NCBI GenBank assembly: GCA_900319925.1
Contig: ONQE01000009.1
Coordinates: 1,807 to 65,806 of the forward strand
Direction of reading: 5' to 3'
Length of the DNA stretch: 64,000 nucleotides
Source: an uncultured Bacteroidales bacterium
Lineage (GTDB): Bacteria; Bacteroidota; Bacteroidia; Bacteroidales; WCHB1-69
Part shown: positions 3,701 to 21,066 of the stretch, piece by piece
How the letters are laid out: every line of letters begins with the position of its first letter
Numbering within the stretch: the first letter of the stretch is position 1
The notes under the pieces: model-generated
The model's input: the letters and a program-made list of their open reading frames with translations, nothing else
Database searches by the model: none
Told to the model about the DNA's origin: nothing
Position numbers and translations under genes: made by a program

Positions 3701-5282
3701 GGAGTTGGTGGATATGCAGAGTGTCGGCAACGAGCTCTATGCGGTGGCACCCGAGGTCAACTACCAGTTCACGGCGGTGAATGCCGAGTTCGACTTCGCC
3801 AAGAACATCATCAACGCCCACGGGGTGCGTTACATCAATGTGGGTGACGCGGCCATCACACCGCTGCACGGCGACGTGACCATCCGCAAGCATGCGGCGA
3901 TGGATATCTTGGAGAAGGCGCGGATTCTGGCTGGGCGCGAGAACAAGTACCACGAGCTTTACAACTGCCACGCCCGCATCCAAAGCGCGACGCGGTTCTA
4001 CGCCAACGGCTACTACGACTACATCGATGCCGAGGAGCGTGTGCAGACCCTCTATTTCGACACCATCTATTTCATGAAGGAGACCTTCGGCGAGGCAAAA
4101 ATCCCGAAGGAGAAAGACTTCCACTTCAGCGACCAGTTCGCATTCGACGGGCGCGCCGAGCTGCACAGCACCAACCCCTTCCTCTCCTACTTCGGCGGGG
4201 TGGAGATCCTGCACGGCTGCGACACCCTCAAGCACGCCCGCATGAAGATCCTCCAACAGGTGGACCCCAACAACATTATGTTGCAGGTACACGATCGCAC
4301 CAAGGATATGGACGAGCGCAAGGTGGTGGTGGCCATCGCCTCCAGCAACAAGACCGGCCGAATCTATACGGCGTTCGGTGTCGCCAAGGATGAGTTCAAC
4401 GACGCGGAATACATCAATGTGTTCGGCTACATCACGTATGACAAGGAGACCCGTGAATTCAAGGCGGCCTCCAAGGAGAAGCTCATGGATCCGAGCGTCC
4501 CCGGCAACATCATCGTCCTGAACACCGACAACTGCGAAGCGACGGGTACGGGTACCATCGATATGGGCACGAAGCTCGGGCGCGTGGATTTCGTCACCAA
4601 CGGTACCATCGTCAACTATATGCTCGCCGACTCCGCTGAGATGCACATCACCACCTCCATCGATTTCTTCTTCAACGACAAGTCTATGGATCTGATGAAC
4701 AAGGCGTTGGAGAACGCGTCGTTGGATTTCGTGGATGTGTCGGGCGACGAGGCCTTCGACCAGGCGCTCTACAACATCCTCGGAAAAACGGAGTACGACC
4801 GCTATCAGCGCAGCACAGCCCTCGGTCAGAACCGTCGTCTGCCTGACGCGCTCCAGGTGCAGTTCCTCTTCTCCAACATCGATTTCGATTGGGACAAAGA
4901 TCACTCCACCTTCAAGTCGCAAACCGTTCTGCCGTTGATTGTGTGCGGTTCGAAGCAGGTCTATAAGACGGTGCCCGGCCGTATTGTCATCGAGAAACGC
5001 GGCTCGAGGAACCGCTTGTACCTCTACTTCGAGTTCGACGACCAGTTCTACTATTTCCAGTTCGACAACAACGCGGTGTCGGCTTTTTCTTCGAACAAGG
5101 CGTTCAACGATGCCATCACGAGCGTGAAGCCCAAGAACCGCTTCCAGGAGCCCGACAAGGCCAAGGGGCTGCCGTCGTTCACCTACAAGCTGGGTAACCG
5201 AAGCCTGAAGAACAAGTTCGTGAAGAACTATTTCACGGATATTGAGGAAGAAACGGAAACAGAATCGGAAACCGGGGAATAA
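798..5282 (+). CDS. Large secreted protein of unknown function (1494 aa)
   Basis: Uninterrupted ORF with a signal-peptide-like N-terminus (MKRFFLISIILCVSVLTYAQ), its own -7 box, and an acidic tail EEETETESETGE. I recognised no family by eye. Confidence 0.8.
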   Translation: MKRFFLISIILCVSVLTYAQRFTSFSNDPTKTVEEMKEFYASVPKDRQKEAKEILEQFELMWTTRMDADNQEVFITEANKMVKKKHRPIPHFQSFIRTYDIFLQSQYAGEAETWQKILDYHISKSSTFFQEKMELYARFFQDNIMNQGDNVKWVAMGFADHLGFDQEPYFDFKDIDLWGYSAKDSLVVSSVNGRYYPDKLQFKANGGTISWDRAGLDPGVYAELKTYDIDLRFPRVVADNALFHYPKLFAQPMLGRVEEKAVLPTSEEKATYPRFTSYETTLPVKNLYKDVDYIGGFAMHGASIFGTGQGDTLAKVTIYNEGQVIITAQSRSFLIRPANLLSEDAKVSLYIENDSIYHPAANFKYDNEKKSLLISRPKQGVGRSPFFDSYHKLDMYVESIQWVTTEKRIELKPIVGNTSDQAAYFESQNYYEEGVMHEIAGFNTQNPLYTLWQLFNSAGYEDLTIEDVIRWFNKPPLDIKAMMIDFAARGFIEYDVNNNRIHYRSKIAQYLNNQLKKKDYDYIKLESKTHYASLDLVTNDLKITGCEFFVLSDPQIVNVYPMDELVTVKKNRNMVFSGRVIGGLFDFVTHNCQFDYDRFLVDMDIIDTLIMYVEDKNGPMDMYGDYKLQRVRSQIEELSGVLYVDVPGNKSGIVDYPDYPIFEARKGGKVFYDQPYVLGGVYDRNRFYYSVNQFRIVNLDNFVIDSMKFTGALISGGIFPDIAEPLKVQSDFSLGFVHNTTGLPMYGTKGGYQGRISLSNRGLRGKGNIDYITSHTYSDSLVFYLDSTNGAANRHIVDEQQAGTEFPPASVEEAYLHWEPYEDQMFIHTLQEPMDIFKETELTGNSKITPNGMFGTGIVKFNRADISSRLFQFKHHELLADTADLRIYDISGGKDVAFSTDNYNSHIDFKTRKGRFLANGEASVVYFVQNEVKAKSSEFEWDPIDSTMLRFKWDDPYKNTDIDNTPIKELVDMQSVGNELYAVAPEVNYQFTAVNAEFDFAKNIINAHGVRYINVGDAAITPLHGDVTIRKHAAMDILEKARILAGRENKYHELYNCHARIQSATRFYANGYYDYIDAEERVQTLYFDTIYFMKETFGEAKIPKEKDFHFSDQFAFDGRAELHSTNPFLSYFGGVEILHGCDTLKHARMKILQQVDPNNIMLQVHDRTKDMDERKVVVAIASSNKTGRIYTAFGVAKDEFNDAEYINVFGYITYDKETREFKAASKEKLMDPSVPGNIIVLNTDNCEATGTGTIDMGTKLGRVDFVTNGTIVNYMLADSAEMHITTSIDFFFNDKSMDLMNKALENASLDFVDVSGDEAFDQALYNILGKTEYDRYQRSTALGQNRRLPDALQVQFLFSNIDFDWDKDHSTFKSQTVLPLIVCGSKQVYKTVPGRIVIEKRGSRNRLYLYFEFDDQFYYFQFDNNAVSAFSSNKAFNDAITSVKPKNRFQEPDKAKGLPSFTYKLGNRSLKNKFVKNYFTDIEEETETESETGE

Positions 5283-11535: not shown

Positions 11536-12138
11536 TCACATCCCGAGGAACGCCATAAACCCCATGCCCAGCAGTCCGGTGATGATGTAGGCGATGCCGT
11601 TGCCCTGCAGTTTGGGCGGGATTTTCGCGTATTTGAGGCGTTCGCGGATGGCGGCGAAGGCGGTGATGGCCAACAGCCAGCCGATGCCGGAGCCGAGCGC
11701 GTAGGCCAGACTGTGCGCCACGGTGGGGAAGTGGCGCTCCTGCATGAAGAGTGAGCCGCCGAGGATGGCGCAGTTCACGGCAATCAACGGCAGGAAGATG
11801 CCCAACGTCATATACAGCGCGGGCAGATACCGCTCGAAGACCATCTCCAGCAGCTGCACGATGCCCGCAATCACCGCGATGAAGATGATCAGCGACAGAA
11901 ACGAGAGGTCCGTGCCGGCAAAGCTTGCGTTCAGCCACGTCAACGCCCCTTCGCGGAGCAGGTATTTGTCGATCAAGTAGTTGACGGGCACGGTGACCGT
12001 CAGCACGAAGCAGACGGCCAGTCCCAACCCGAAGGCGGTCTTCACGTTCTTGGAGACGGCCAGATAGGAGCACATGCCCAAGAAGTAGGCGAAGACCATG
12101 TTGTCGATGAAGATGGAGCGGATGAAGATGTCGAACAT
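11536..12138 (-). CDS. nqrE: Na+-translocating NADH:quinone oxidoreductase subunit E
   Basis: 200-aa polytopic membrane protein with conserved NqrE/RnfA-like segments (FLGMCSYLAVS, LPLIAVNCAILGG). Confidence 0.9.
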   Translation of the reverse strand: MFDIFIRSIFIDNMVFAYFLGMCSYLAVSKNVKTAFGLGLAVCFVLTVTVPVNYLIDKYLLREGALTWLNASFAGTDLSFLSLIIFIAVIAGIVQLLEMVFERYLPALYMTLGIFLPLIAVNCAILGGSLFMQERHFPTVAHSLAYALGSGIGWLLAITAFAAIRERLKYAKIPPKLQGNGIAYIITGLLGMGFMAFLGM

Positions 12139-12141
12139 TAA

Positions 12142-12270
12142 GGTTTAAGGTTTAAGGTTTAAGGTTTAAGGTTTAAGGGTTAAGGTTTATGGTTTATGGT
12201 TTATGGTTTATGGTTTATGGTTTAGGGTTTAAGGGTTAAGGTTGGGGGGTACTAACTGCTAACTGCTAAC
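12142..12270. repeat. Composite heptamer arrays: GGTTTAA/GGGTTAA/GGTTTAT/GGTTTAG x15 (12142-12246), G-rich spacer, TAACTGC x2.6 (12253-12270)
   Basis: Units counted directly. The array starts 3 nt upstream of the nqrE ATG. The methyltransferase stop (TAG, 12259-12261) lies inside the TAACTGC part. Confidence 0.95.
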
Positions 12271-13071
12271 CGAATTCCGTTCCCAGAAGACCCCGTCGGC
12301 GTATCCCTGGATGGTGGAGTGGGTGGCGGCGAGGAGGAGGCGTTTGGCGGTCCAGAGGCAGTATTCGCGGTTGACTTCGACGCAGCAGAAGCGGCGGTCG
12401 AGTTTCTTGGCGACGACGGCGGCGGTGCCGCTGCCGGAGAAGGGGTCGAGGATGCGGTCGCCGGGGTTGGAGGAGGCGAGGATGAGCTTGGCGTAGAGTT
12501 TCTCGGGCTTCTGCGTGGGGTGGTCGGTGTTCTCGGGCATCGACCAGAAGGGCACGCTGATGTCGTCCCAGAAGTTGGAGGGGTGGGTGAGCCGGAACTT
12601 GCCGTCGGCGGTGTCGTCCCAGTCTTTGGGCTGACCGTCCACGCGATACGGGGCCAGCACCTTGCGTTTCATCTTGACGGCTTCCAGGTTGAAGGTGTAG
12701 TGTTTCGGGTCTTTCACGGCGAACCAGATGTCCTCCATGCTGTTCTTCCAGTTGAACTTCGCCCCGCGGCCCTTCTCGCGCTGCCAGGTGATGCGGTTGA
12801 GGATGGTAAGCCGCTCTTCGATAACCCGTTGCATAGAGGAGGAGCATTTCCAGTCGCCGCACATATAGAGCGAGCCCGTCGGCTTCAGCTTGTCGCACAC
12901 CTTTCCGAACCAGCTGCGCAGGAATTCCTCGTAATCGTCGGATTGCATGGAAGAGAATTTCCGTCCGTGGAAGTCTTTGTCGAGGTTGTAGGGCGGGTCG
13001 AGGAGGATGAGGTCGAAGAATCCGTCTGGGATGAGGTCGAGGCATTCGAGCAGGTCGCCGTTGACGAGCAT
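12259..13071 (-). CDS. Beta-class DNA methyltransferase (DPPY motif, probably N6-adenine), orphan
   Basis: Motif IV LLDPPYN precedes motif I DPFSGSGTAAV (beta permutation), and a DHPTQKPEKL motif is present. I chose the start at MLVNGDLLECL. The ORF stays open up to 13452, but the extra residues translate the 32-bp repeats and the promoter region; ATG 13365 is an alternative start. Confidence 0.85.
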   Translation of the reverse strand: MLVNGDLLECLDLIPDGFFDLILLDPPYNLDKDFHGRKFSSMQSDDYEEFLRSWFGKVCDKLKPTGSLYMCGDWKCSSSMQRVIEERLTILNRITWQREKGRGAKFNWKNSMEDIWFAVKDPKHYTFNLEAVKMKRKVLAPYRVDGQPKDWDDTADGKFRLTHPSNFWDDISVPFWSMPENTDHPTQKPEKLYAKLILASSNPGDRILDPFSGSGTAAVVAKKLDRRFCCVEVNREYCLWTAKRLLLAATHSTIQGYADGVFWERNSVSS

Positions 13072-13180
13072 ATCGTCGCGGAGGCCGGAGCGCAGGTCGT
13101 CCGGCGTGCTGACGAGCGGTTCCAGCGCGGGGACTTCCCCGGCGGTGACCGTCAGCGTGCGGTTGCGCGGGGCCCGTCCT

Positions 13181-13304
13181 CCACACTGCGGCTCCGCCTT
13201 GTCCGTTTCGCCCCACACTGCGGCTTCGCTTTGTCCGTTTGGCCCCACACTGCGGCTTCGCCTTGTCCGTTTGGCCCCACACTGCGGCTTCGCCTTGTGT
13301 GGGG
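13181..13304. repeat. 32-bp tandem repeat x3.9 (ccacactgcggcttcgccttgtccgtttggcc)
   Basis: Copies lie at 13181, 13213, 13245 and 13277 (truncated) with no spacers. The last copy closes into CCCCACAC-N14-GTGTGGGG. Confidence 0.9.
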
Positions 13305-13399
13305 TTATTAGCGCTTCGCGCGTCTTGCCCCTCCGGGGCTGCTCAAGGAATGTATTCGTTGTCATTCGCTGCCTCTTTCTCTCATTCTTTTTGGAATTG

Positions 13400-13407
13400 C
13401 AAAGGTA
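13400..13407 (-). promoter_or_regulatory. -7 box TAccTTTG upstream of the methyltransferase
   Basis: The plus strand reads caaaggta. It is the only TAnnTTTG match between the repeat field and the methyltransferase gene. Confidence 0.5.
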
Positions 13408-13756
13408 CATTTTTTTTAGACGTTCGCGCATAATCTGAAATAACAATCGCACCTCCCTGAGACGCTCACCCCGCCAGCACGGGCTGCCCCGTCCCTACTC
13501 GCCTCGGAGAGGCGACACGCACGCAGTGCAGGTAACACCACACAAGCGCAGCGCAGTGTGGTGCTGGTAGCGCAGTGTGGTGTCGCAGCGTAGTGTGGTG
13601 TCGTGCCGCAGCGCAGTATGGTGCTGGTGGTATGCAGTGTGGCGTCGTAGCCCTGTGCTGGGGGAGTGACTCTGTGATGATCGGTGAGCGTGTATCTCAT
13701 CTCAGTGTCTCGTCATGCGTACCAGCACCACGCTGCACACGAGACAGCACACCACG

Positions 13757-13924
13757 GGCAGCACACGGCGCACCCTCACCGGCAGCACACTGCGCGGCTC
13801 TGCCGGCATCGCACTGTGTGGCTCTGTCGGCATCGCACTGTGTGGCTCCGTCGGCATCACCCGGCGCATCTCCACCGGCATCGCACTACGTACCACCACC
13901 AGCACCACACTGCGCGGCTACGCC
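13757..13924. repeat. 24-bp tandem array x7 (consensus near GGCATCACACGGCGCNNCNCCACC)
   Basis: Units are in register at 13757, 13781, 13805, 13829, 13853, 13877 and 13901. Confidence 0.85.
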
Positions 13925-14074
13925 GCTAGTATGGTGTTACCTGCGCCTGACGGCGCGTCGCATCTCTCCGAGATGCTCACCCCGCCAGCACGGGCTGCCC
14001 CGTCCCAACTCGCCTCGGAGAGGCGACACGCACGCAGTGCAGGTAGCACCATACCAGCGCAGCGCAGTGTGGTG
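13903..14074. repeat. Long imperfect palindrome at the unit A/B junction (unoccupied version of the RAYT-flanking arms)
   Basis: Paired segments are caccacactgcgc/gcgcagtgtggtg, ggtgYtacctgc/gcaggtaRcacc, gtcgc/gcgac and ctctccgag/ctcggagag, around a 41-nt centre. Confidence 0.8.
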
Positions 14075-14226
14075 ACGTAGCGCGCAGTGTGGTGCTGGTA
14101 GCGCGCAGTGGTGCGTCGTAGCCCTGTGCCGGGGAGTGACTCTGTGATGATCGGTGAGCGTGTATCTCACCTCAGTGTCTCGTCATGCGTACCAGCACCA
14201 CGCTGCACACGAGACAGCACACCACG

Positions 14227-14466
14227 GGCAGCACACGGTGTACCACCGCCGGCATCACACGGCGCGGCTCTGTCGGCGCCACACGGCGTGCCACCACCGG
14301 CGCCACACGGCGTGCCACCTTCAGCGCCACACGGCGTGCCACCGTCAGCATCACACGGCGCATCTCCTCCGGCATCACACGGCGCACCACCATCGGCATC
14401 ACACGGCGTGCCACCACCGGCATCACACGGCGCATCTCCACCAGCACCACACTGCGCGGCTACGCC
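14227..14466. repeat. 24-bp tandem array x10 (same family as 13757-13924)
   Basis: Units are in register every 24 nt from 14227. Copy number differs from unit A (10 versus 7). Confidence 0.85.
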
Positions 14467-15164
14467 GCTGGTATGGTGTTACCTGCGCCTGACGGCGCGT
14501 CGCATCTCTCCGAGATGTTCCGCTCAGTCCGTGAGGAAGTACTCCTCTTTGATTTTGACTCCGTTCTCCGTGAGGAACTTTCGATATTCCTCCTCAAACG
14601 TCACACTATGATGATGCTCCTTCTGTCTGGCGATATACCGCACCACCGTGGCTTTGTCGCGCAAGCTTTTCGAAAACCCAGCATATTCTTTGGTCCAGCC
14701 ACTAAAAAGCGGGAAATGGGGGTTCGCCTTGAGCCACTTGCTTGTGGAGACCTTGAGTTCCTGAACGAATTTGGACATGGCCAAGGTTGCCGGCAGGGAC
14801 ACGAAAAGGTGCACATGATCGGGCATGCCGCCAATGCGGTAAAGATGCCCTCCCTTGTTCTTAGTAAAACCAAGTATGTAGGAGTAGAGCTCTCGTTCGT
14901 GTTCCTCCACGATGGCGGGGACGCTGCGGTGCGTGCGAAGGACAATGTGGTAATAAGTCTGTGTGTAACTCATGATTTTGTTTACAGTTTTGTATAATTT
15001 TGTTTTAACATGCTAATAACGGTAAAATGCTCGGATTATTGTGTTTGTCACATTTCTCTGAGACGCTCACCCTGCCAGCACGGGCTGCCCCGTCCCTACT
15101 CGCCTCGGAGAGGCGATACGCACGCAGTGCAGGTAACACCATACCAGCGCAGCGCAGTGTGGTG
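14445..15164 (-). mobile_element. RAYT/IS200-like Y1 transposase cassette flanked by inverted REP-like arms
   Basis: The left arm (14445-14517) and right arm (15051-15164) are the two halves of the palindrome seen intact at 13903-14074. A 15-nt junction segment is present on both sides (catctctccgagatg at 14503-14517; catttctctgagacg at 15051-15065). The interior (14518-15050) has visibly lower GC than the flanks. Confidence 0.7.
14524..14973 (-). CDS. IS200/IS605-family Y1 (HUH) transposase-like protein, REP-associated tyrosine transposase (RAYT) type
   Basis: 149 aa with HUH motif PDHVHLF and a Tyr motif in VVRYIARQKEHH. The overall pattern (YHIVLRT...GGMPDHVHLFVS...STSKWL) is that of the single-domain Y1 transposase family. 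No tnpB partner is present. Confidence 0.8.
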   Translation of the reverse strand: MSYTQTYYHIVLRTHRSVPAIVEEHERELYSYILGFTKNKGGHLYRIGGMPDHVHLFVSLPATLAMSKFVQELKVSTSKWLKANPHFPLFSGWTKEYAGFSKSLRDKATVVRYIARQKEHHHSVTFEEEYRKFLTENGVKIKEEYFLTD

Positions 15165-15420
15165 CCGCAGTGTGGTGCCGCAGTGTGGTGCCGTAGCGCA
15201 GTATGGTGCTGGTGGTATGCAGTGTGGCGTCATAGCCCTGTGCTGGAGGAGACGATGAGGAGCTACTCGCCTCGGAGAGGCGACACGCACGCAGTGCAGG
15301 TAGCACCATACAAGCGAAGCGCAGTGTGGTGACGTAGTGCGCAGTGTGGTGACGAAGCGCAGTGTGGTGACGAAGCGCAGTGTGGTGACGAAGCGCAGTG
15401 TGGTGACGTGGTGTCGCAGC
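15058..15420. repeat. Two further partial composite units (head modules plus GCGCAGTGTGGTG repeats), ending in an 18-bp tandem gcgcagtgtggtgacgaa x5
   Basis: The head module is repeated at 15058-15140 and, truncated, at 15263-15310. The 18-mer array at 15319-15410 ends 15 nt from the nqrD stop codon. Confidence 0.85.
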
Positions 15421-15424
15421 GCAG

Positions 15425-16000
15425 TTATTTCGCCCAAATAATCACCCCAATCAATATCAGCGCCATGGGCGGGAGAATCATCAGCCCGTTGTTGAGGTAG
15501 CCGGCGGCGTACCAGCTGTCGGGGACGACCTGGTGGTTCCACAACGTGCCGGAGCCGAGCAGCTCGCGGAAGAAGGCCACCACGGCGAGCACCAATCCGT
15601 AGCCGAGACCGTTCATCACGCCGTCCATAAACGACGGGAACGGCTTGTGCGACAGCGCGAAGGCCTCCAACCGCCCCATGATGATGCAGTTGGTGATGAT
15701 CAAGCCTACAAACACCGACAGCATCTTGCTCACATCGTAGAGATACGACTGCAGCAGCAGGTCCACGAGGATGACGAAGAAGGAGACCACCAACAGCTGC
15801 ACGATGATGCGGATGCGCGGCGGTATCGTGTTGCGCATCAAGGAGATGATGAAGTTGGAGCAGGCACATACCACCGTCACGGAGAGGGCCATGACCACGG
15901 CGGGCTTGAGCTGCGCGGTCACCGCCAACGCCGAACAAACGCCCAACGTCTGCACCAGTATCGGGTTGTCTTTGCTGAGGGGTCCGAGGTATTTCTTCAT
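15425..16000 (-). CDS. nqrD: Na+-translocating NADH:quinone oxidoreductase subunit D
   Basis: Contains NPILVQTLGVCSALAVT, GLIITNCIIMGR and other NqrD/RnfE-like membrane segments. Confidence 0.9.
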   Translation of the reverse strand: MKKYLGPLSKDNPILVQTLGVCSALAVTAQLKPAVVMALSVTVVCACSNFIISLMRNTIPPRIRIIVQLLVVSFFVILVDLLLQSYLYDVSKMLSVFVGLIITNCIIMGRLEAFALSHKPFPSFMDGVMNGLGYGLVLAVVAFFRELLGSGTLWNHQVVPDSWYAAGYLNNGLMILPPMALILIGVIIWAK

Positions 16001-16756: not shown

Positions 16757-16819
16757 AGTCATAAGTCCCACGTCATAAGTCATAAGTCATACGTCATAAG
16801 TCACACGTCCCACGTCTCC
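16757..16819. repeat. Heptamer tandem array AGTCATA/CGTCATA/AGTCCCA-type x9
   Basis: 63 nt is 9 units. The nqrB stop (TGA, 16794-16796) and its last 8 codons lie inside the array. Confidence 0.9.
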
Positions 16820-17870
16820 GTTTGATGTGGTTTTGCACGACGCACCAGTCGATGAGGGGGGCGAAGATGTTCATCAGCAGGATGGCGAGCATCATGCCTT
16901 CGGGGTAGCCTTTGTTGAGGGTGCGGATGAGGATGGCGAGGATGCCGATGAGCAGTCCGTATATGTACTTGCCGTCGCGGGTGTGCGCGGCGGTGACGGG
17001 GTCGGTGGCCATGAAGACCGCACCGAACATAAAGCCGCCCATCAGCAGCTGGTCGTGGGCGGCGACAGGACAAAGACCTGTCAGCTGGCAGACCACCGCT
17101 GTCGCGTAGCCGCCGACGAACACCGAGAACATGATGCGCCAGTCGGCCACTTGGGTGAAGAGGAGAATGGCCGCGCCGATCAGGATGGCAATCTTGCAGG
17201 TCTCCCCGATGCAGCCGGGGATGGTACCGAGGAACAGCTCCCATGTGGAGGGCAGCGCTTCGGGATGGCCGTTCATAACGAGGGCAAGGGGAGTGGCGCC
17301 GGTGACTGCGTCCGCACCGGAAATCCACACTTTGTCGCCGGAAATCACCGACGGGTAAGCGAAGAAGACGAAAGCGCGGGCCAACAACGCAGGGTTCAGG
17401 AAGTTATAGCCGGTGCCGCCGAAGACCTCCTTGCCGAAGATGACGGCGAAAATGGTGGCCACCGCTACGATCCAGAGCGGCACGTCGGGCGGCATGATCA
17501 TCGGGATGAGGAAACCTGTGACGAAGAAACCCTCCGCCACCTCCTCCTTGCGTATCTGCGCGAAGAGGACCTCCACGCCAAGTCCGCTCACGTAGGTCAC
17601 GATGACCAACGGCAGCCATTTCAGGAATCCGTACCAGAGACAAGACCATAGAGCCGTCTGTCCCCCGACGGAGAGGGAATGCTGATAGCCCACATTCCAC
17701 CAGCCGAATACCAACGCGGGAACCAGCGCAATCATCACCGTGATCATGATGCGCTTCATATCGACCGCGTCGCGCACGTGGCAGCGACCGTCCGTGACTG
17801 TCGCGGGCGTACGCAGGAACGTGTCCATGGCGTCGAGCAGGGCGTTGAATCTATGCGGTTTCTCAGACAT
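16794..17870 (-). CDS. nqrB: Na+-translocating NADH:quinone oxidoreductase subunit B
   Basis: Contains FMATDPVT (the FMN-threonine region), NIFAPLIDW..V....IKRR near the C-terminus, and multiple TM segments. Confidence 0.9.
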   Translation of the reverse strand: MSEKPHRFNALLDAMDTFLRTPATVTDGRCHVRDAVDMKRIMITVMIALVPALVFGWWNVGYQHSLSVGGQTALWSCLWYGFLKWLPLVIVTYVSGLGVEVLFAQIRKEEVAEGFFVTGFLIPMIMPPDVPLWIVAVATIFAVIFGKEVFGGTGYNFLNPALLARAFVFFAYPSVISGDKVWISGADAVTGATPLALVMNGHPEALPSTWELFLGTIPGCIGETCKIAILIGAAILLFTQVADWRIMFSVFVGGYATAVVCQLTGLCPVAAHDQLLMGGFMFGAVFMATDPVTAAHTRDGKYIYGLLIGILAILIRTLNKGYPEGMMLAILLMNIFAPLIDWCVVQNHIKRRRGTCDL

Positions 17871-17899: not shown

Positions 17900-19714
17900 T
17901 TATCGCTTATCTGGCTCAAAAGAAGTGATCCGAATCACCCACGCATTCTCCAGCTCGTTAAGTTTTTTCGTGTCGATGTCGGAAAAGTCGATAGTAAGGG
18001 TTCCTCTCTTGTCCTGCTTCCATTTCAGCATGGTGTAGGCTTTCCCTTTTTCGCCGTGGTAGCTCATCTCATAATCCGTGCCTAACAGGATCATCCCATC
18101 TTTCGGGTTTAGCTTTGGCATATTCTTGATGACTAGCGGCTTGCGCGGATCAGGACGCTCGAACTCGATAATGTAGAGGTTGTTGTAGAGGTTCTCGCTC
18201 TTGGTGGTGAAGCAGCGTGTGGTGGTTTGCCATGTGATTTCGCTAATCCAGTTTGAGGATACGGGCTCGAAATCCCCTCCGTCAACACTCACGAGGAGCG
18301 AGGCCGTGGCCTCGAGGTCTTTCTCATGATACCAGACATCTAATTGATAATTCTCCCCTTTGGCGAGGTGCACCTCATACCAAGGCGTGTTCTCCGCCCA
18401 GTTACTGTTGTAATAGAGAATAGTGTCCCCATTGCCTGCAACGGTCATCTCGTCGTTGGCAACAGCCTTGAAACGGTATGTACCATCCTTCGGCGCCTTG
18501 AAAGATCCTTTCCAATGAATGTCGAAGTTGTCCACTGGCATTTCTCTGAGTGGGGCATTGCGCACCCAGTCGAAATGTAGAGGGCCTGAATATCCAGGTA
18601 AAGCGAAGGTCGTTGTACGTTGGCACGGAATCTCATACGGCCTTGTCCCATATATCGCCTCGCCGTTGATTTTCAGCCATTTGCCGAGTGCTCTCAGCCG
18701 TTCCTGCTGGATGAGCGGGATGGTGCCGTCGGCGTAGGGACCCACGTTGAGGGTCATGCCGCCGCCGTGCGCCACCAACTCCACAAAGTGCTGTATCAAC
18801 TCCTTGTCGGTCATGTAGTTGTCCAAATCCTCGTTGCGGTTCAACCCGAAGCTGCGTCCGAAGCCGCGGCACTCTGCCCACGGCACCTCGGTGTTGGCGA
18901 TGCCCGCGCTGTACTCGGGCGTCAGGAAGCCGTGCTTCGTGCCGTTGCCCCAACGGTTGTTCACGATGGCGTCCGCGCCCACGGTGTTGTAGTACCAGCT
19001 GATCAGTTCCTGCGAACGAAGCTGCTCCGCCGTGTTGTTCCAGTCGCCGTCGGAGAAGAGAAGGTCGGGCTTGTAACGGCCCACCAACTCCTTGAACTGC
19101 GGCACCATATAGTTATCAACATAGTCGCCGATCTCGTTGTCGGGATCCTGCATCCAGATGTGGCGCGGGTTGGTCCATTCTGGCAGCGAGTAGTAGAAGC
19201 CCATCCGCAGTCCGTGGTCGCGTACGCTGGTGGTCAACTCCTCCACGATGTTGCGCCTCGGACCGCTCATCACGCTGTTCCATTCAGGCTGGAATGGACT
19301 GTCCCACAGACAGTAGCCGTCATGATGTTTCGTGACCAACACCACGTATTTCGCGCCGGCATCCTTGAACATTTGCGCCCAATCGTCGGGATTCCAAAGC
19401 TCTGCGTGCCAGAATTTGGTGAGCTCCTTGTACTGGTCGAAGACGGGCTTGGTGGTGTCGGCGTAGTAGCTCATGATGCGCGTCCGCTCGGGCACTTTCT
19501 GCATCAGCCCGCGGTAGAACCATTCGCCGTAGCCCTCCTTGGAGGCGTAGGCAGGCACGGAGTAGAGTCCCCAGTGGATGAAGATGCCGAGTTTCGCGTC
19601 TTGGAACCACTGCGGGTAGCCGCGCTGGTTGAGGGATTCCCACGTGGGTTGAACTTGGGCCTGTGTCGTCAATCCGGCCAGTAGGATTATCAATAAGGTC
19701 GCTAATTTCTTCAT
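17900..19714 (-). CDS. GH29 alpha-L-fucosidase with a C-terminal PA14-like/carbohydrate-binding extension, secreted
   Basis: Signal peptide MKKLATLLIILLAGLTTQAQ, then the GH29 core (FGIFIHWGLYSVPAY, YVVLVTKHHDGYCLWDS, YYSLPEW) and a C-terminal PA14-like segment (GTYRFKAVANDEMTVAGNG). I chose the ATG at 19714, which overlaps the nqrA stop as ATGA. Confidence 0.85.
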   Translation of the reverse strand: MKKLATLLIILLAGLTTQAQVQPTWESLNQRGYPQWFQDAKLGIFIHWGLYSVPAYASKEGYGEWFYRGLMQKVPERTRIMSYYADTTKPVFDQYKELTKFWHAELWNPDDWAQMFKDAGAKYVVLVTKHHDGYCLWDSPFQPEWNSVMSGPRRNIVEELTTSVRDHGLRMGFYYSLPEWTNPRHIWMQDPDNEIGDYVDNYMVPQFKELVGRYKPDLLFSDGDWNNTAEQLRSQELISWYYNTVGADAIVNNRWGNGTKHGFLTPEYSAGIANTEVPWAECRGFGRSFGLNRNEDLDNYMTDKELIQHFVELVAHGGGMTLNVGPYADGTIPLIQQERLRALGKWLKINGEAIYGTRPYEIPCQRTTTFALPGYSGPLHFDWVRNAPLREMPVDNFDIHWKGSFKAPKDGTYRFKAVANDEMTVAGNGDTILYYNSNWAENTPWYEVHLAKGENYQLDVWYHEKDLEATASLLVSVDGGDFEPVSSNWISEITWQTTTRCFTTKSENLYNNLYIIEFERPDPRKPLVIKNMPKLNPKDGMILLGTDYEMSYHGEKGKAYTMLKWKQDKRGTLTIDFSDIDTKKLNELENAWVIRITSFEPDKR

Positions 19715-21066
19715 TCTTGATTCTGCATTTTTAATTCCAAGAGGGCGTCCTCGACGATTTGTTGCCACTCCTTTTTCGAGGGGCAGACGAGTTCGCAGAG
19801 GGCGAAGTCCTCGCTATCGACTTCGTAGATGCCGAGGGCTTCCATCTGTTCGATGTCCTTGATCTCGCAGGCCTTGAGCAGCTGCAGAGGCATCAGGTCG
19901 AAGGGGAAGACCTTGTCATAGACGTCGGTCATCATGACGGCGCGGCGGCCGCCGTGGAGCGAGGTGTTGACATCGTAGGTGCGTTTCGGGGTGAGCCACG
20001 ACAGGAATGTGTGCGAGAGGCTCCATTTCTTCAGCCCCGGCAGTAACCATCCGAGGATCTCGCGTTGGCCGCCCTCCGCAATGACCGTGATCTGCCGGTC
20101 GTGGAAAGCGAGGGTGGGGGAGTCCCCCAACTTGCTGCCGCTCAGTATGCTGCCGCTGATGGCGCGGACGTTCTCCTGCGTGAGGCTGTCGGCGAACAGC
20201 GCGGACAGATCCGCACCGTAAATCGTGTCGAAGTAGCCGGTGTTCTTGACGGCGGGCCCCGTCAGCGCAGCGGTTTTCCCGAACTGCAGCATCTGTTCCG
20301 CAAAGAAACGACCGATGCGGGCCACCTCTTGCGGGTCGAGGAACCAGACCGTTTCGCCTTTGTCGATGGGGTCTATTCGGTGGATTTGAGTGCCGACGTT
20401 TCCGGCGGGGTGCGGACCGCTGAAGTAGTGCTTCTGCACATTCTCGACAGCTTCAAAGAGTTGGTTGTCAGCCCTTTCTCGCATACAGATATGTACAGTC
20501 GCGTCACCGGCGGCCAGTTGCAGCATCTTGATTCCCTGCCGGAAATCCTCCTCCTTGCCACGCATCAGCACATTGAAGTCCGGGGCGAGTGGGTTGCTGT
20601 CGAAGCAGGAGACGAATACGGCTTTGGGTTTCGCATCGGGACTGGGGATGGTGGCGTAGGGGCGTTGTCGCAGAGAAGGCCACAGACCATTCTGTAGCAA
20701 CAACTTGCGGACAGCCTCTCCGTCGGTCGGTGGCTCGAAATGGATGGTTCTTTCCGTGGGCGCGTCCACGTCGCGGGCAATCGTGATCTCCTCGATGATC
20801 CGCTTCTCGCCGCGCACAATCTCCCGCACCGTGCCTGCAATGGGAGAGACAATGACGACACGTTCATCCGCTTTGTCGTGGAACAACGGGCTGCCGATTT
20901 CCACGTGGTCGCCAGCCTGCACGAGCAATTTGGGTTTCATCCACCGGAAGTCGGATGGCCGGATGTGGAAGGTTTTGGGCAAAACGAAGTCTAACGGCGT
21001 GTCGGGCGCGGCGCCGTCCAACTTCAGATCCAGTCCTTTGTTGATTTTGTAGGTCATCGTGTTCAT
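19711..21066 (-). CDS. nqrA: Na+-translocating NADH:quinone oxidoreductase subunit A
   Basis: Has the typical N-terminus IKKGLDL-type (YKINKGLDLKLDGAA) and the length and architecture of NqrA. Confidence 0.9.
   Translation of the reverse strand: MNTMTYKINKGLDLKLDGAAPDTPLDFVLPKTFHIRPSDFRWMKPKLLVQAGDHVEIGSPLFHDKADERVVIVSPIAGTVREIVRGEKRIIEEITIARDVDAPTERTIHFEPPTDGEAVRKLLLQNGLWPSLRQRPYATIPSPDAKPKAVFVSCFDSNPLAPDFNVLMRGKEEDFRQGIKMLQLAAGDATVHICMRERADNQLFEAVENVQKHYFSGPHPAGNVGTQIHRIDPIDKGETVWFLDPQEVARIGRFFAEQMLQFGKTAALTGPAVKNTGYFDTIYGADLSALFADSLTQENVRAISGSILSGSKLGDSPTLAFHDRQITVIAEGGQREILGWLLPGLKKWSLSHTFLSWLTPKRTYDVNTSLHGGRRAVMMTDVYDKVFPFDLMPLQLLKACEIKDIEQMEALGIYEVDSEDFALCELVCPSKKEWQQIVEDALLELKMQNQE

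Follow-up and report, generated by a model that had tools for sequence, protein, structure and literature searches.

How does a solitary transposase gene come to lie among dense palindromic repeats inside a respiratory operon, and do the gene and the repeats belong together? The question is raised by a 64,000-nucleotide (nt) stretch of DNA, here called the window, from an uncultured Bacteroidales bacterium (GenBank assembly GCA_900319925.1, contig ONQE01000009.1), in which an open reading frame (ORF) at 14524–14973 on the minus strand codes for a 149-aa Y1 (HUH) transposase. The gene lies in a 3.2-kb insert, together with an N6/N4 DNA methyltransferase (methylase) gene and dense repeats; the insert is enclosed by nqrE (11536–12138) and nqrD (15425–16000), and all of these genes are on the minus strand. 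A preliminary description of the sequence had seen here an IS200-like/RAYT gene (RAYT, a transposase associated with repetitive extragenic palindromes, REPs) at the centre of a long palindrome, with an unoccupied copy of that palindrome 0.5 kb away. Our analysis leads to a partly different picture: the locus is probably a unit of the kind represented by REPtrons and TIRtrons, that is, a single-copy, long-maintained, IS200-like Y1 gene whose cognate repeat is clustered around it.

The sequences on both sides of the gene are copies of one module, about 75 nt long, which forms three hairpins: hp1 (NNNNTC-GGA-GANNNN), hp2 (a GC stem of 4–5 bp) and hp3 (CACCATAC...GTGTGGTG). The spacer between hp2 and hp3 is conserved, reading AGGTAA or, more generally, A(A/G)(T/G)TAA. 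Three subtypes occur, namely A (hp1 CATCTC-GGA-GAGATG, hp2 GCGCC-GTCA-GGCGC), B (hp1 CGCCTC-GGA-GAGGCG, hp2 GCAC-GCA-GTGC) and C (hp1 GCCCC-GGA-GGGGC, hp2 GCGC-GAA-GCGC, hp3 CCCCACAC...GTGTGGGG). A covariance model built from 96 distinct modules (R1) and run without filters on the window found seven full modules, all within 13270–15336, and none in the remaining ~61 kb. Two of them flank the gene in inverted orientation, as had been described: A2 (14440–14521, minus strand, 69.8 bits), which begins 6 nt past the stop codon and folds as three hairpins at −21.7 kcal/mol, and B3 (15097–15169, plus strand, 85.7 bits, E 5.7e-21). A perfect 21-nt inverted pair (14466–14486 and 15129–15149, 100% complementary) brackets the gene. 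The hp3-arm sequence GCGCAGTGTGGTG occurs 18 times against 0.17 expected, and a 42-nt arm pattern four times against none expected.

The hairpin stems covary. In the 96-module alignment the stems of hp1, hp2 and hp3 contain 134 double-change cells, against 41.5 ± 4.9 in shuffled alignments (0/500), and the covariation score of 0.222 compares with at most 0.077 for slid registers; six of the seven hp1 pairs are compensated. The GGA loop, the spacer and the hp3 arms are near-constant in comparisons of lineages with saturated synonymous sites. On the 5′ side of hp1 the bases vary, so that there is no conserved GTAG; GCAG, and less often GTAG, is found inside hp3 only.

The modules also accompany the gene. 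In the eight closest metagenome-assembled genome (MAG) relatives from GTDB that were tested (L003–L010; such handles denote contigs or loci), all of them rumen or gut Bacteroidales with proteins 68–82% identical to that of the window, every module that matches the window profile is at most about 700 nt from the gene, with none in the rest of its ±4-kb flanks. More distant clades (L011–L016, about 65% identical) have the gene flanked by a visibly different module of two hairpins. Sequence comparison thus supports the view that the modules are the cognate repeat family of this Y1 gene family.

What is the basic form of the element? In nine lineages (L095, L112/L196, L182, L190, L183, L149, L005, L007 and L008) the gene is at the centre of a convergent palindrome with four hairpins in each arm. 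The canonical order is hp1, hp2, hp3 and hp4(+), then about 70–100 nt including CACAATAATCC, the ORF, 1–3 nt, and hp4(−), hp3′, hp2′ and hp1′, where hp4(+) and hp4(−) are perfect inverted 20-nt copies of GCATCTC-GGA-GAGATGC followed by GAC. Of the two arms, each about 110 nt long, one is an A and the other a B module, in both cases with an inner hp4 added.

The same arms are found without the gene. A scan of JGI metagenomes with the arm pattern yielded at least 120 stretches, 82 of which have real modules among the matches listed, a scope that applies to all site counts in this paragraph. The gene is also present in only 18 of the 82. Merging by flank similarity left at least 65 independent sites; no Y1 gene lies within 1.5 kb of 53 of the 65, and for 19 of these 53 at least 1.5 kb of sequence is available on both sides. 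Of 32 testable sites, 27 are outside long open frames. The gene-less sites include singlets, convergent pairs and divergent pairs, the commonest form being a palindrome of ~245 nt. Nineteen gene-less copies were aligned. Each pairs an A-type with a B-type arm, and their homology reaches exactly as far as the outer hp1 stems; gene-bearing loci from which the ORF is removed align end to end with these ~245-nt elements. By this alignment the gene-less palindromes appear to be non-autonomous elements, similar to miniature inverted-repeat transposable elements (MITEs) or to REPINs (REP doublets forming hairpins), and the two forms seem to be related as an autonomous element is to its MITE, or a REPtron to its REPINs. 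Further copies of the arms, for which the preliminary description had proposed a genome search, were found gene-less in related genomes, and there were none in the other ~61 kb of the window. A viral carrier was also considered: eight matches of the arm pattern in IMG/VR were evaluated with the covariance model, and none was a real module.

The gene itself has the traits of a resident. It is present at one locus per MAG in all 19 close relatives, a count to be read with the caveat that repeats collapse in MAG and short-read assemblies; L006 has two diverged paralogues. These paralogues (2–388 and 4001–4411) are 3.6 kb apart, the first about 60% and the second, which is C-terminally altered, 82% identical to the window protein. 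An orthologous gene site is shared by L003, L100, L173 and L186, with flanks 80–92% identical, and other lineages place the gene elsewhere in the chromosome. The nqr operon, considered as a conserved context of the gene, was rejected for this reason.

Could the modules instead be host elements acting at the RNA level or in chromosome structure, such as terminators, mRNA stabilisers or protein-binding sites, with the Y1 gene incidental to them? The hairpins covary and the copies are mostly intergenic, as such a role would have it, and comparable roles are established for REPs. The insert is also inside the nqr operon in the orientation of the operon, and is for that reason probably transcribed. 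We nevertheless consider this explanation very unlikely, because the modules are found in either orientation and form inverted pairs whose ends are defined, the module family changes with the Y1 clade, and modules cluster tightly around the gene in every lineage. Rfam gave no match to the modules: nothing reached the gathering thresholds in the whole window, and only two matches at chance level appeared in 13000–15500 at E ≤ 1. No tRNA or tmRNA was found by a search for these. A host role would, in addition, be compatible with mobilisation by the enzyme.

The arrangement in the window differs from the canonical one, of which it appears to be a rearranged derivative. On one side of the gene is the outer end of a B module, on the other that of an A module; two like-oriented CATCTC-GGA-GAGATG hairpins bracket the gene, and two expanded A...B units of 0.5 kb follow it in tandem. 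Thus the placement of the gene at the centre of a palindrome holds insofar as inverted arms bracket it, but the palindrome is inside-out, with hp1 facing the gene where it is outermost in the canonical and dispersed elements. Read in the orientation of the gene, the blocks run nqrD, B4(−), B3(−), linker, degenerate hairpin, gene, A2(+) ... B2(−), linker, A1(+) ... B1(−), linker, degenerate hairpin, AT-rich stretch, C(+), 32-nt tandem array, methylase gene and nqrE. A second architecture of this kind, with hp4(+) before the gene and, after it, a complete A...B element that begins with a hairpin in the orientation of hp4(+), is common to the window, L003/L100, L173 and L186. The hairpins on the two sides of the gene are like-oriented in the window, L003/L100 and L173 and inverted in the nine other lineages. 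No single inversion or deletion was found that would derive the window layout from the canonical one.

The two bracketing hairpins are the 15-nt segments that had been described as a junction present on both sides of the gene, catctctccgagatg at 14503–14517 and catttctctgagacg at 15051–15065, of which 12 of 15 positions are indeed identical. Each is a 6-bp stem with a 3-nt loop. The first is hp1 of A2 (CATCTC-GGA-GAGATG); the second, on the minus strand, is a degenerate gene-proximal hairpin that reads CGTCTC-AGA-GAAATG in gene orientation. At the same position the hairpin is intact (GCATCTC-GGA-GAGATGC followed by GAC) in L003, L006 and L007 and has a GAA loop in L005. A third, degenerate copy, cacctccctgagacg (13451–13465), heads the first unit with no A tail adjacent. 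Between the gene and its proximal hairpin is an upstream region (14974–15050, minus strand) with the motif CACAATAATCC, equal to plus-strand GGATTATTGTG at 15033–15043, which is conserved after the upstream hairpin in L003, L005, L006 and L007 and also in L095 and L190. On the other side of the hairpin, a linker (15066–15096, plus strand) connects it to the B module and holds a small hairpin, ACGGG-CTGC-CCCGT, at 15080–15093. The linker sequence is present in three identical copies (13475–13494, 13986–14005 and 15076–15095), and homologues with conserved ends occur in L122, L187 and L083.

The supposed unoccupied site is at 13903–14074, where the four paired blocks of an imperfect palindrome of ~170 nt are present as had been described. 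Its left arm is module A1 (13898–13979, minus strand, 73 bits) and its right arm module B2 (14007–14079, plus strand, 84.6 bits). As single-stranded DNA, 13895–14085 folds into one long hairpin at −60.5 kcal/mol, against −40.4 ± 3.5 in dinucleotide shuffles (z −5.74; 0/200 fold as well). It is also correct that the same two halves are split at the next junction by 14518–15050, which holds only the Y1 ORF, and that this interior is lower in GC (0.47–0.53) than the arms (0.59–0.70). The question is whether these two junctions are an empty and a filled version of one site.

A natural series of alleles bears on this question. Among contigs that encode proteins identical to NqrD and NqrE of the window, L215 has no Y1 gene and no A...B unit, its order being B(−), linker, intact hairpin, AT-rich stretch, C(+) and methylase gene. 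The Y1 gene is present with one unit in L145 and L220, with two in the window and L204, and with four in L219, where the gene is 100% identical; L213, L214, L216 and L217 have the gene in variants with extra B modules. L203/L206 have a different Y1 gene and none of these modules. The units, each ~0.5 kb long, are in tandem, and in gene-bearing strains the gene is always at the first position of the array. Since repeats break assemblies, unit counts from short reads are lower bounds. Four metagenome contigs with the identical gene (L001, L002, L221 and L222) end about 0.4–0.6 kb downstream of it, inside the repeat array.

The other Y1 gene (L203/L206, 2986–3912) is at the site between nqrD and the methylase gene, in the opposite orientation, and encodes a subclass 1.2 protein of 153 aa, 32% identical to that of the window. 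It is flanked by its own inverted hairpin repeat, AACCCC-TAAC-GGGGTT. The hairpin repeat GGAACCCCTAACGGGGTTGTGGCGAACG, unrelated to the window modules, forms an array of 4–5 tandem copies on one flank of this gene and has an inverted copy on the opposite flank. The nqrD–methylase site looks like a hot spot for Y1 genes.

According to the preliminary description, 13903–14074 is vacant and 14445–15164 occupied; on this reading a cassette would have entered or left at the 15-nt segment. The two junctions do differ by nothing but a cassette of 529–533 nt and an additional hairpin copy, the single hairpin of L215 is intact and leads directly into the downstream sequence, and all boundaries of repeated blocks at the locus coincide with the 15-nt hairpin. 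We judge this account improbable all the same. The "vacant" joint is found 0, 1 or 3 times in the sister strains, tracking the number of units (0, 1, 2 or 4), so that it is the joint of tandem units, u1 and u2 in the window, and is made by unit reiteration; the position of the gene, by contrast, is fixed in every gene-bearing strain. Unequal recombination between units, which the preliminary description had itself named as the explanation that would count against it, or local reiteration accounts for the "empty" copy. The true gene-less counterpart of the gene-bearing element is the convergent palindrome centred between the hp4 hairpins and not the A1/B2 joint. A target-site duplication can also be rejected for the 15-nt segment, because the hairpin is at every block boundary, including those without the gene (13451–13465; L215), and transposition by Y1/HUH enzymes of the IS200/IS605 type, whose elements insert 3′ of a short target, does not duplicate its targets. 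What had been taken for a duplicated junction is instead a conserved hairpin, CATCTC-GGA-GAGATG, that brackets the gene in several lineages. Since the block boundaries of the locus coincide with it without exception, this hairpin is the prime candidate for the recombination site.

To which family does the enzyme belong? The protein matches Pfam Y1_Tnp (PF01797) with E 1.1e-20 and 74.4 bits, and has an intact HUH motif (H53-V-H55) and catalytic tyrosine (Y113, within YIARQKEHH), in agreement with its first identification as an HUH/Y1 transposase. A set of 27 homologues, 63–85% identical, shows no variation at D52, H53, H55, Y113, Q117, H120 and H121. The ratio of nonsynonymous to synonymous substitution rates (dN/dS) between lineages is 0.04–0.09, with synonymous sites saturated; purifying selection on the protein is strong.

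The RAYT label could not be maintained. The tyrosine motif YIARQKEHH has the Y---Q--HH signature and not the Y---NP of class 2, and the protein scores 22.7 bits with NCBIfam REP_Tyr_transpos (NF047646), below its cut-off of 80; having failed both the motif and the profile test, it is outside the class-2 RAYT family. The score with NCBIfam IS200 (NF033573) is borderline, 55.1 bits against a cut-off of 55. The best sequence matches in PDB are IS200-type TnpA proteins (2F4F, 2FYX and 2XM3; E 7e-5 to 1e-3), and the Escherichia coli RAYT structure 4ER8 gave no sequence match at E ≤ 1. Foldseek with the AlphaFold (AF2) model (confidence, pLDDT, 78) returned IS200/IS605 TnpA chains as its first 29 matches (E about 1e-6), 4ER8 being 30th with E 9e-4.

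The DHVH motif and the length of 149 aa agree with the DH[IV]H and about 148 aa of TnpA-Y1 subclass 1.2, and the protein aligns without gaps over 146 residues, including the C-terminus, with the L203 member (WQ, YIENQTQHH; 32% identity, E 1e-29). The W motif is WT and not WQ; it is WS in 17, WT in 5 and WG in 5 of the 27 homologues, and among more distant relatives WQ is found in 38 of 58 and Y..Q..HH is kept in 56 of 58. By these sequence features we assign the protein to the IS200-like, Y---Q--HH enzymes, where it appears to fit subclass 1.2, and not to the class-2 RAYTs. The wider protein family comprises 5,996 clusters (50% identity) at E ≤ 1e-3 and 1,847 clusters at E ≤ 1e-10. About twenty relatives of 270–320 aa (P0128, P0132, P0134, P0136, P0137 and others) match the 149-aa query twice; they are probably tandem two-domain Y1 proteins and candidate single-chain "fused dimers", and merit interest because IS200-type TnpA is active as a dimer whose active sites form in trans.

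With such an enzyme, the locus could be an ordinary, currently mobile insertion sequence (IS) of the IS200 family with its MITEs, and not a domesticated single-copy gene, the full element being the gene-bearing palindrome of ~0.8 kb that moves both itself and its deletion derivatives. The element that contains the gene does, after all, have the same ends as the gene-less copies, as in IS200/IS605 elements and their MITE or palindrome-associated (PATE) derivatives; the IS200 profile is just reached; and the closest sequences and folds are those of IS200/IS605 TnpA, namely ISDra2, IS608 and a Sulfolobus IS200. The chromosomal site of the gene differs between lineages, the gene is missing in the sister strain L215 while L203/L206 have another Y1 gene in its place, and the like-oriented hairpins around the window gene recall the left and right ends of IS200/IS605. 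Nevertheless, an ordinary IS seems unlikely to us. The gene is in single copy in the MAGs of all 19 close relatives and has kept its chromosomal position across species whose flanks differ by 8–20% and whose synonymous sites are near saturation, with very low dN/dS across that depth. Subclass 1.2 was published as low-copy and without IS properties (PMC6006769). The arms, moreover, are multi-hairpin structures of ~110 nt and mostly inverted, whereas IS200/IS605 elements have short, direct subterminal hairpins, and the window system is without tnpB.

We therefore return to the REPtron- or TIRtron-like unit and compare it with the known systems. The REPtron literature, on TnpA-REP (RAYT) with REPs, BIMEs (bacterial interspersed mosaic elements) and REPINs, reportedly goes back to Nunvar in 2010, Bertels and Rainey in 2011 and Ton-Hoang in 2012. 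REPINs, as Bertels and Rainey are said to have defined them, consist of two inverted units with a short spacer that form one long hairpin and are dispersed without a transposase. Elements with these properties are documented for related lineages (the 19 aligned ~245-nt loci) and not for the window strain; the window doublet at 13895–14085 folds equally into a long hairpin but is a tandem joint. The locus shares with REPtrons a one-copy Y1/HUH gene between inverted copies of a hairpin repeat, gene-less inverted doublets that are dispersed in related lineages, and local arrays in which two repeat subtypes take turns in opposite orientation, as they do in BIMEs. A concentration of repeats beside the gene was described for Marinomonas REPtrons (Corneloup 2021, PMC8266576) and is seen here as well. 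It differs in that the protein is not of class 2 (Y---Q--HH and not Y---NP, 22.7 bits against 80, 4ER8 only 30th by fold), the repeats are without a conserved GTAG tag, the module has three hairpins in 75 nt (four per arm in relatives) where a REP is a single palindrome of 20–40 nt, and the host is an uncultured rumen Bacteroidales bacterium.

The locus appears to resemble TIRtrons even more closely than REPtrons. TIRtrons have Y1 genes (TIRYTs) in long terminal inverted repeats (TIRs), with repeat copies that are single, dimeric or grouped (Di Nocera et al. 2013, PMC3733652). Here too the Y1 gene is in long terminal inverted repeats and not between GTAG REPs, copies elsewhere in the genomes of related lineages are single, dimeric or grouped, and some TIRtron repeats have self-complementary tracts. 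On the other hand, TIRYTs were described as RAYT-like (subclass 2.1 in PMC6006769) and the window protein is IS200-like, the arms here have a conserved, covarying multi-hairpin architecture, and they have a defined gene-less derivative of ~245 nt. For subclass 1.2, Quentin et al. (2018, PMC6006769) gave Y---Q--HH, ~148 aa, DH[IV]H, low copy number, occurrence in Cyanobacteria and Bacteroidetes, and "REP: no". The window protein agrees in length, DH[IV]H, Y---Q--HH, low copy number and presence in Bacteroidetes, and in a C-terminal extension that is gap-free against the canonical member L203; it differs in its W motif (W[TS], not WQ) and in having conspicuous cognate hairpin repeats. On REP-like elements in Bacteroidales, or on repeats of subclass 1.2, we found nothing in the literature beyond PMC6006769 and PMC3733652.

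By analogy with IS200/IS605 TnpA and TnpA-REP (PMC8266576), the enzyme would bind the GGA-looped hairpins when these are extruded in single-stranded DNA, and would cleave and rejoin the DNA beside them. Such reactions could mobilise the gene-less palindromes, and enzyme activity, homologous recombination between direct repeats, or both, may cause the local gain or loss of units. Several points weigh against this interpretation. Catalysis, binding and transposition are argued from related enzymes, no event having been observed. No orthologous filled and empty pair was found for any dispersed 245-nt element and no target sequence could be defined, so that mobility is read from distribution alone. 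There is no module outside the cluster in the 64 kb of the window, dispersal being documented for related lineages and not for the window strain, and the window units, which lack the inner hp4 and have a different core, are homologous to the dispersed elements through their arms only. The figure of one gene per genome and some of the unit counts may be underestimates because repeats collapse in assemblies. Finally, there are two gene architectures, with inverted or like-oriented proximal hairpins, neither of which could be derived from the other.

The remaining repeats of the insert are distributed as follows. Module B4 (15264–15336, plus strand, 87.5 bits) is without linker; beyond it, 18-nt tandem repeats extend to nqrD (15315–15419; 15315–15408 with 5.1 copies according to Tandem Repeats Finder, TRF). 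At the other end, module B1 (13496–13568, plus strand, 89 bits) comes after a linker (13466–13495) and the degenerate proximal hairpin at 13451–13465. The third variant, module C (13270–13344, minus strand, 67.6 bits, E 3.4e-16), is upstream of the methylase gene and is present in all sister strains, the gene-less L215 included. A 32-nt tandem array (13181–13298, 3.7 copies, TRF score 215, 95% matches) reiterates its hp3 arm; L215 apparently has one copy of this repeat. The interiors of the A...B units are tandem arrays with periods of 13, 18 and 24 nt that likewise reiterate the hp3 arm, as in unit u2, where a unique core (~14110–14220 by unit alignment) adjoins a 24-nt array of about 10 copies derived from the hp3 arm (14220–14458, TRF). 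All six tandem arrays (13181–13298, 13547–13629, 13779–13919, 14220–14458, 15153–15193 and 15315–15419, with periods of 32, 18/23, 24, 24, 13 and 18 nt) repeat one hp3 arm only, GCGCAGTGTGGTG or its complement. Slippage or abortive nick-and-prime events at hp3 are possibilities for the source of this one-arm amplification. ORFs of 71–101 aa are called on the arrays; they have no Pfam match and lie on both strands, the periods of the arrays are 13, 18, 24 and 32 nt, and coding repeats were rejected and these ORFs treated as spurious.

The genes that bound the insert, nqrD and nqrE, were assigned from their ORFs and from Pfam Rnf-Nqr matches of identical proteins. The methylase gene (12259–13119, minus strand; PF01555, E 2.2e-41) is a neighbour within the insert and is outside the transposase unit; L215 and L210 have it but no Y1 gene. 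A candidate promoter, TACCTTTG (13400–13407, minus strand), lies in the AT-rich stretch and so upstream of the C module, the methylase gene and nqrEF. It fits the Bacteroidetes −7 promoter consensus TAnnTTTG, is kept in the gene-less allele L215, and could restore expression downstream of the insert. In L218 (5577–5830; GCA_045113875.1), nqrD and a B module are followed by unrelated genes (YbjQ, DUF349 and others) and not by the methylase gene and nqrE, and in L210 other genes precede the methylase gene and nqrE; the nqr operon seems to be broken at the repeat cluster in these two.

An alpha-L-fucosidase gene (PF01120 and PA14, 604–653 aa; 17900–19768, minus strand) is also inside the nqr operon, between nqrB (16794–17870) and nqrA (beyond 19768), so that in the window lineage the operon is interrupted twice, here and by the methylase/Y1 insert between nqrD and nqrE. 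At the nqrA–fucosidase junction, six sister contigs (L213–L218, at about 1000–1150) have a C-type module plus about 70 nt, ~145 nt in total, which is absent from the window (~19760–19790), L219 and L221. Where present, this segment takes the place of the 5′ end of the fucosidase ORF, whose called length is then 637–653 aa and not 604 aa. The junction was considered as a filled and empty pair for a single module and set aside for want of a clean insertion site; the ~20 nt adjoining on each side also differ, so that the site of insertion is unreadable.

The association of gene and repeat may be general, since 23 of 34 distant relatives (29–40% identical, with Y..Q..HH) have significant inverted multi-hairpin repeats flanking the gene. 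This was found in a quick test of loci L022–L081: in those 23, the 350-nt flanks upstream and downstream of the gene have in common an inverted repeat much longer than those of shuffled controls. The relatives with such repeats belong to Acidobacteriota, Planctomycetota, Verrucomicrobiota and other Bacteroidota, and their repeat is usually two hairpins and a spacer, for example CCCGCGAACGCGGG-GGTAGCATAAAGC-CTGGGG...CCCCAGG. It is a possibility, put forward here tentatively and with more doubt than confidence, that the Y---Q--HH enzymes form a third class of resident HUH transposases, one that spans phyla and in which each clade has its own multi-hairpin palindromic family, and that in the present clade the TC-GGA-GA hairpin is the site of recognition and recombination at which the enzyme swaps, reiterates and deletes cassettes between like-oriented hairpins. 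If so, cassette exchange at these hairpins would explain the arrays of 0–4 units and the gene-less allele, as well as the two unrelated Y1 genes at nqrD–nqrE and the two gene architectures.

The system is of interest to specialists in mobile DNA and brings no new principle. In practical terms, the repeats break short-read assemblies, several contigs ending there, within the respiratory nqr operon. One species complex provides a natural allelic series (no gene; the gene with one, two or four units; a different Y1 gene), which narrows the candidate recombination site to one hairpin of 15–20 nt and supplies concrete substrates for cleavage and strand transfer in vitro. To our knowledge, the biology of REPs and RAYTs comes almost wholly from the class-2 enzymes of Proteobacteria. 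In uncultured rumen Bacteroidales, an IS200-like subclass published as being without cognate repeats would now be seen with a REPtron-like syndrome: a resident gene under purifying selection, covarying multi-hairpin arms, gene-less palindromes at many sites, and local arrays that resemble BIMEs.

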